Shown here one piece after another: positions 10,276 to 10,570 of a stretch of 12,853 bases of DNA. Location: UHGV virus genome UHGV-1704341. One strand, given 5' to 3'. How positions within the stretch are numbered: the first letter of the stretch is position 1; each line of letters starts with the position of its first letter. Origin of the DNA: a virus. The notes below the pieces were generated by a model. That model was not told the origin of the DNA and searched no databases. It saw only the letters and a list, made by a program, of their open reading frames with translations. The position numbers and the translations under genes were made by a program.

Positions 10276-10570
10276 ATGCCACCACGAACCCCAAAAGCCT
10301 GCCGCGTTCGCGGCTGCCGCCAAACCACCACTGACCCGTCAGGCTACTGCGAAAGCCACAAAAGCGAAGGCTGGAAACAATACAAGCCGCGTGCTGAAGC
10401 GTGACAAAGGCCTGTGTCAGTTGTGCCTGCGTGTCGGTGTGGTGCGTGAGGCGAAAACCGTTGACCACATCATCCCTAAAGCGCATGGCGGCACTGATGC
10501 AGACTGCAATCTGCAGAGCCTGTGCTGGCCGTGTCATAAGGCGAAGACGGCCCGTGAACGACTGAAGTGA
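10276..10570 (+). pseudogene. HNH endonuclease (packaging-associated), frameshifted: zinc-ribbon N-terminus in frame 1, HNH core in frame 2
   Basis: RBS ggag then ATG 10276: MPPRTPKACRVRGCRQTTTDPSGYCESHKSEGWK..., stopping at 10402-10404. HNH core (RDKGLCQLC...VDHIIPKAHGGTD..NLQSLCWPCHKAKTA) reads in frame 2 to 10570. The junction lies near 10366-10395. Confidence 0.65.

Follow-up and report, generated by a model that had tools for sequence, protein, structure and literature searches.

What has become of the HNH endonuclease gene that lies across two reading frames at 10276-10570 of this viral DNA? The window (the whole stretch analysed, 12,853 nucleotides of UHGV virus genome UHGV-1704341) represents an HK97-type, cos-packaging E. 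coli prophage of the SfI / SfV / phiP27 / ST64B group. A sequence-only reading had described one HNH gene split between frames 1 and 2 in a packaging-gene context, and had attributed the split to a 1-nt deletion in an A-rich run. We conclude with high confidence that a packaging-associated zinc-ribbon HNH gene is inactivated here by an out-of-frame internal deletion of 56 bp between 10388 and 10389.

The layout given in that reading is correct. An N-terminal zinc-ribbon peptide, with ribosome-binding site (RBS) and start, occupies frame 1 and stops at 10404 (sequence reading, ORF list), the HNH catalytic core is in frame 2 (ORF 10265-10570; Pfam match), and the two are parts of one HNH endonuclease gene, since both pieces match phrog_144. 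The parts of the gene are:

10267-10270, plus strand: Shine-Dalgarno GGAG of the HNH gene, 5 nt 5' of the native ATG (10276), by sequence reading
10276-10404, plus strand: HNH 5' fragment in frame 1, native codons 1-38, four out-of-frame codons (RAEA), then TGA at 10402-10404
10388-10389, plus strand: deletion junction, where 56 bp of all intact homologs are missing (placement ambiguous by 1 nt)
10391-10570, plus strand: HNH 3' fragment in frame 2, native residues V58-K116 and TGA stop (10568-10570)
10415-10555, plus strand: HNH (beta-beta-alpha-metal) domain with [CxxC]2 zinc site, Pfam PF01844, E = 3.6e-15

Translation of frame 1 from ATG 10276 gives MPPRTPKACRVRGCRQTTTDPSGYCESHKSEGWKQYKP followed by RAEA (in full MPPRTPKACRVRGCRQTTTDPSGYCESHKSEGWKQYKPRAEA), with a zinc-ribbon motif of the form C9-x4-C14 ... 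C25-x2-H28. The frame-2 ORF (10265-10570) encodes VLKRDKGLCQLC...DHIIP...NLQSLCWPCHKAKTARERLK and carries ...VLKRDKGLCQLCLRVGVVREAKTVDHIIPKAHGGTDADCNLQSLCWPCHKAKTARERLK; the PF01844 match covers residues 51-97 of this ORF. The catalytic codons are present (H83 at 10466-10468, N97 at 10508-10510 and H106 at 10535-10537), and the C66/C69 and C102/C105 codons of the [CxxC]2 zinc site are all retained. With the PF01844 motif, the His/Asn/His set and the paired CxxC motifs, the frame-2 ORF belongs to the HNH / His-Me finger endonucleases. Against the phrog_144 profile the 5' piece matches positions 17-55 (E = 7.7e-10) and the 3' piece positions 80-138 (E = 7.9e-23); an intact homolog matches positions 17-138, and the window pieces leave a hole at 56-79. 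This two-frame layout is far beyond chance.

The hole in the profile corresponds to DNA that is missing. Homologs of the HNH region were sought by blastn against phages and by megablast against 5,426 complete E. coli genomes, and the many that were found are all annotated as a single 'HNH endonuclease' gene beside a 'phage terminase small subunit P27 family' gene. The best megablast matches are 100% identical but fall in two pieces, with a record span 56 bases longer than the query; with a 121-nt query over the junction, the best 25 E. coli matches each span 177 nt (121 + 56). The intact gene has 351 nt and encodes 116 aa (WP_024946501.1, carried by FDAARGOS_497, ECONIH1 and others). In a three-way alignment of the window, E. 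coli FDAARGOS_497 and phage SfI, the 56-bp gap is the sole difference from the FDAARGOS_497 gene, the window being 100% identical to both FDAARGOS_497 and ECONIH1 on either side of it, codons 1-38 of the 5' fragment included. Nucleotide alignments with intact homologs thus locate the frameshift between 10388 and 10389, and this junction occurs in no other copy searched.

The missing block runs CAGGACAATCC...ATCCGCGCG (in full CAGGACAATCCCGTCACCAGCGCGGCTACGGTTCGAAGTGGGATGTTATCCGCGCG). It takes codons G39-A56 (GQSRHQRGYGSKWDVIRA), 18 conserved codons, plus one base on each side, and since 56 leaves a remainder of two when divided by three, reading moves from frame 1 to frame 2. The 1-nt ambiguity in placement (one C) is the only microhomology at this deletion. 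A slippage origin was considered and rejected, as there is no flanking direct repeat and microhomology amounts to 1 nt.

The deleted codons 39-56 encode a conserved RGYGxxWxxxR helix. Judged by the alignments, the deleted block is ancestral, with equivalent residues in SfI, in GVE2 HNHE (PDB 5H0M), in N.phiGamma of phage Cherry/gamma and in HK97 gp74. Closest to the window gene are the orthologs of WP_024946501.1, namely SfI_0066, SfV orf53, ST64B Sb56 and phiP27 L34. SfI is about 94% identical to the window over a wider query, and the E. coli and SfI-type copies occupy the same position as the window copy, after the lysis genes and a 67-aa ORF and before cos, terS and terL.

HK97 gp74, a packaging HNH protein studied experimentally, is a more distant relative that, like the window gene, lies at the right genome end beside cos and an HK97-type terminase. 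It lacks the N-terminal zinc ribbon, and its alignment with the intact homolog starts at residue 6, running from there (RVYGSRWDKARLR) to RGYGSKWDVIRAR; the intact homolog matches gp74 residues 6-46 (45% identity over 42 aa, E = 6e-10), with the HNH core following an RxYGSxWDxxRxR helix. The window copy has lost exactly the helix that gp74 keeps, the first 13 aligned residues (RGYGSKWDVIRAR) falling inside the deletion, and so the gp74-type homology, N-terminal helix included, is not found in it.

Among solved structures the best match is the GVE2 HNH endonuclease (PDB 5H0M/5H0O, PMC5304195), aligned over its full length (1-114 against 1-126) with E = 1.8e-11. Within this match fall the CxxxxC...YCxxH motif of the N-terminus and also the [CxxC]2 zinc site. 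GVE2 HNHE comes from a thermophilic Geobacillus phage, is about 39% identical and, unlike the window copy, is intact. In its crystal structure residues 39-130 are ordered, including the region missing here, and residues 1-38 are disordered (PMC5304195). Order from residue 39 onwards suggests that the deleted region (about GVE2 42-67) is a folded helix on the HNH core rather than a linker.

The same architecture of zinc ribbon, helix and HNH is found in N.phiGamma of Bacillus phage gamma/Cherry (35% identity; PMC3592412), whose host and nicking specificity differ. The zinc-ribbon motif type (CxxxxC...CxxH) has been described for HNH endonucleases beside cos sites (PMC3592412). In this nicking family ribbon and HNH stand in one polypeptide, as they do in the intact homolog; in the window the deletion has cut the ribbon (frame 1) off from the HNH (frame 2), which makes the window copy a pseudogene of a family member.

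What could still be made from this copy is limited. It contains no uninterrupted translatable ORF, as frame 1 stops at 10402-10404 and the core has neither start nor RBS. The native RBS and ATG would yield a 42-aa ribbon-only peptide (38 native residues and RAEA) ending at 10404. The HNH core (residues 58-116) would probably not be translated to a useful extent, having no start signal of its own: no Shine-Dalgarno was found before GTG 10391 by sequence reading, and a scan of 9900-10800 found no promoter-like site for the core. The frame-2 piece also has no ATG, and its sole upstream start, a TTG overlapping the native RBS, would add 42 out-of-frame residues in front.

A 59-aa core, were it made, would still lack the RGYGxxWxxxR helix and would resemble a 61-aa truncation of N.phiGamma. 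A 76-aa fragment of that enzyme (F5), in which the helix is retained, still nicks DNA (PMC3592412), whereas the 61-aa C-terminal fragment (F6) has minimal nicking activity and in the authors' words 'is not sufficient' (PMC3592412). In the alignment the 59 native frame-2 residues begin two residues before the start of F6. The N.phiGamma truncations were engineered, in frame and expressed; the window core, unlike them, is out of frame and lacks a start signal. By analogy with homologs 35-45% identical, the HNH copy is probably a null allele.

The earlier reading had also placed the gene among packaging genes with further defects, and this is borne out: cos, terS and terL adjoin it, and both terminase genes are frameshifted. 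The neighbouring features are:

10240-10260, plus strand: terminator-like GC-rich hairpin and T-run (scan), directly upstream of the HNH RBS and after the 67-aa ORF (10007-10210)
10599-10606: inverted partner of cos, GGGGCGGG, intact
10637-10646, plus strand: cos site TGCCCGCCCC, intact, aligning with the annotated phiP27 cos-site CGCCCGCCCC
10697-11166, plus strand: terS (P27 family), out of frame after codon 7 through a 25-bp deletion between 10713 and 10714, with A>G at 10705
11163-12835, plus strand: terL, put out of frame by a 16-bp perfect tandem duplication (11908-11939)

The cos site begins 66 bp downstream of the end of the HNH gene (10570), and the mature SfI genome has its end exactly at the cos point, the following base being where it starts again. 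At that following base the window has A, and SfI and phiP27 have G. Beyond terL the reference prophage continues with ymfR, the portal, an HK97-family prohead protease and the major capsid protein, so that the HNH gene has the location of gp74, adjoining cos and HK97-type terS/terL, portal, protease and capsid genes. The hairpin at 10240-10260 is identical in FDAARGOS_497 and SfI; given this conservation, expression of the packaging genes presumably needs Q-type antitermination.

By analogy with HK97 gp74, the protein of intact relatives may cooperate with TerL and TerS in cleaving the neighbouring cos site. In vitro, gp74 is reported to stimulate the cleavage of cos by TerL (PMC9410871; PMC12967558; both referring to Kala et al. 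2014), and the completion of packaging is reported to require related HNH proteins (PMC12967558, which summarises Kala et al. 2014 and Quiles-Puchalt et al. 2014). Terminase-dependent stimulation of cos cleavage and a need for the protein in making infectious particles are described for gp74 (PMC9410871) and for Skunavirus HrdP (PMC12967558).

The HNH gap is one of several lesions. Compared with ECONIH1-type prophages, the whole window shows nine private indels and one substitution in 12,833 aligned bases; taking ECONIH1 as the reference clears a patch of substitutions seen against FDAARGOS_497, and all the indels remain. They comprise five deletions (61, 33, 16, 56 and 25 bp), three perfect tandem duplications (13, 9 and 16 bp) and a single additional C, at window positions 1143, 1374, 1672, 2872, 8177, 9111, 10388, 10714 and 11908. 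Each strikes a different gene or signal: repressor, cro-like, ymfL, O-like, terminator, Rz, HNH, terS and terL.

On the minus strand at 1143-1178, a 13-bp tandem duplication (1143-1168) lies in the 5' end of a cI-like LexA-family repressor gene. It frameshifts the native start at 1178 and makes a new in-frame ATG at 1165, from which a same-length protein of 224 aa can be read that differs only at residues 2-3 (K2T, T3S). The 61-bp deletion at 1374 frameshifts the cro-like ymfT, and the single extra C at 1672 frameshifts ymfL, both relative to the reference annotation. At 2872-2889 a 9-bp in-frame tandem duplication (ATCCTGATG twice) affects a helix-turn-helix, replication-initiator-like (O-like) gene, and the resulting 316-aa protein is absent from a collection of 15 billion proteins.

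Upstream of the holin gene, at 8159-8177, a 33-bp deletion directly behind the hairpin GGCCGCC-TAC-GGGCGGCC has taken away the T-tract together with bases downstream of it, leaving an intrinsic-terminator-like element without its U-run. The Rz-type lysis gene at 9049-9195 is frameshifted after codon 20 by the 16-bp deletion between 9110 and 9111, and stops after 48 codons. In terL the N-terminal ORF stops at 11987. At the end of the window (12825-12853) the terL frame is left after 12835, and 12 G are followed by CAAGGTAC, 8 bases unlike the reference. A 106-aa internal-start fragment of terS (MWQLTTKELCG..., window 10846-11166) is an annotated protein on 55 public contigs, which points to N-terminally disrupted or mis-called terS copies in other E. 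coli genomes. As terS, terL and Rz are also broken, the prophage element described by this sequence is unable to package or release DNA.

Were these lesions ever present in a living genome? The HNH gap and the eight other indels may instead be assembly or sequencing artefacts, or introduced alterations, with the real HNH gene intact, and we give this a chance only slightly below one half; whether the HNH deletion is biological or an artefact or alteration of the sequence is a question on which the odds are near even. It concerns provenance only, and the anatomy of the deletion is undisputed by it. Nine indels with a single substitution in 12,833 aligned bases make a peculiar record in favour of an artefact, and none of the nine junctions is found in the 5,426 complete E. 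coli genomes. For the HNH junction, a 44-nt megablast query gave no match among these genomes, where an intact 44-mer used as a positive control matched 144, and an exact pattern search found it in none of one genome per species, IMG/VR viral contigs and JGI metagenome contigs. A concatenated query of the other eight junctions likewise had no match in the E. coli genomes, so that none is a shared polymorphism.

The proteins tell the same way: by exact look-up in the collection of 15 billion, six lesion-specific ORFs are absent, the only ones present being two unaffected ORFs, and the 274-aa TerL fragment has no record. With junction and fragment proteins found nowhere else, the HNH deletion allele has no support from any independent sequence. 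The run of 12 G and 8 unrelated bases at the window end, moreover, resembles a read-end or contig-end artefact.

The breakpoints themselves also favour an artefact. Spontaneous deletions and duplications of such size in E. coli usually occur between short direct repeats, and neutral decay produces far more substitutions than indels. Microhomology at the deletions here is 0, 0, 0, 1 and 0 nt and at the duplications 1, 0 and 1 nt, where random breakpoints are expected to show 0 nt in 56% and 1 nt in 28% of cases. The observed distribution is indistinguishable from that of random breakpoints, and random-looking breakpoints of nine private indels are unlike usual natural decay. Against an artefact, sequencing usually errs by 1-2 nt in homopolymers, and clean deletions of 16-61 bp and perfect duplications of 9-16 bp are atypical of such errors; cryptic prophages do acquire private pseudogenising indels, and nothing within the sequence itself proves an artefact.

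The one unusual aspect is the pattern of lesions over the whole window, and faulty data are a likelier source of it than new biology. Should the nine indels be genuine (1-61 bp in size, with eight in the range 9-61 bp), they might mark a process or selection regime, so far undescribed, in which lesions of the end-joining type disarm a recently acquired prophage; we regard this as very improbable. Were such a process at work, the HNH deletion would be one of its lesions and not ordinary slow decay.

Taking the sequence as it stands, we give still less chance to a rescue by recoding, in which a programmed +1/-2 frameshift, or termination and reinitiation at GTG 10391, would yield a working nuclease. 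The in-frame GTG at 10391 lies 11 nt upstream of the frame-1 stop (10402-10404), a geometry that might allow weak reinitiation, but the overlap covers only 10391-10404 and holds no slippery heptamer or stimulatory structure. Any product would still lack residues 39-57, and the equivalent 61-aa fragment of N.phiGamma is minimally active; weak reinitiation at the GTG would probably give only a core of the inactive type. As terS and terL are broken, no packaging function is left for a rescued nuclease.

It is also most unlikely that the two ORFs are a natural arrangement of two genes, a small zinc-ribbon protein beside a short HNH endonuclease. Separate zinc-ribbon proteins do adjoin HNH endonucleases in several Bacillus, Clostridium and Lactobacillus phages, as Xu & Gupta described for small proteins of this kind in some Firmicute phages (PMC3592412), but every close relative of the window gene has one gene of 351 nt. 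In SfI (SfI_0066), phiP27 (L34) and the E. coli copies, a single CDS of 351 nt holds both the N-terminal and the HNH parts, and tblastn against phage records puts at least 80% of the 116 aa in one place in 634 of the 864 matching records, all 40 rows listed being single pieces. The earlier reading had named ribbon and core as separate genes in related phages as the finding that would overturn it, and these relatives do not show that arrangement. The frame-2 piece, moreover, lacks an ATG or Shine-Dalgarno of its own, the upstream TTG overlaps the native RBS, and the conserved helix, kept even by the ribbon-less HK97 gp74, is absent. Because the flanks in the window match the fused gene at 100% identity, the separate-gene case of the Firmicute phages does not apply.

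The proposed 1-nt deletion in the A-rich run, shifting an otherwise complete gene, fares no better and can be dismissed: the run 'aaacaataca' is indeed present at 10375-10384 and sits 4 nt upstream of the junction, but it is base for base as in the intact genes, the 56-bp gap (after 10387/10388) is the sole difference within the gene, and an alignment in which 18 codons are missing already refutes the loss of a single base.

The preferred reading is accordingly a single gene with a 56-bp internal deletion, and 10276-10570 should be annotated as one pseudogene, not two small genes. With the lesion corrected to a 56-bp loss of conserved codons, 18 of them gone besides the frameshift, a single-base slip could not restore the gene. 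For the window as a whole, the indel-rich and substitution-poor pattern, together with the poly-G end, is a quality flag: the defects should be confirmed on reads before they are read as prophage domestication. The biological weight of the finding is small. This is a dead copy of a well-known packaging accessory gene, from a known and common packaging HNH family, and it tells us nothing new about this gene.
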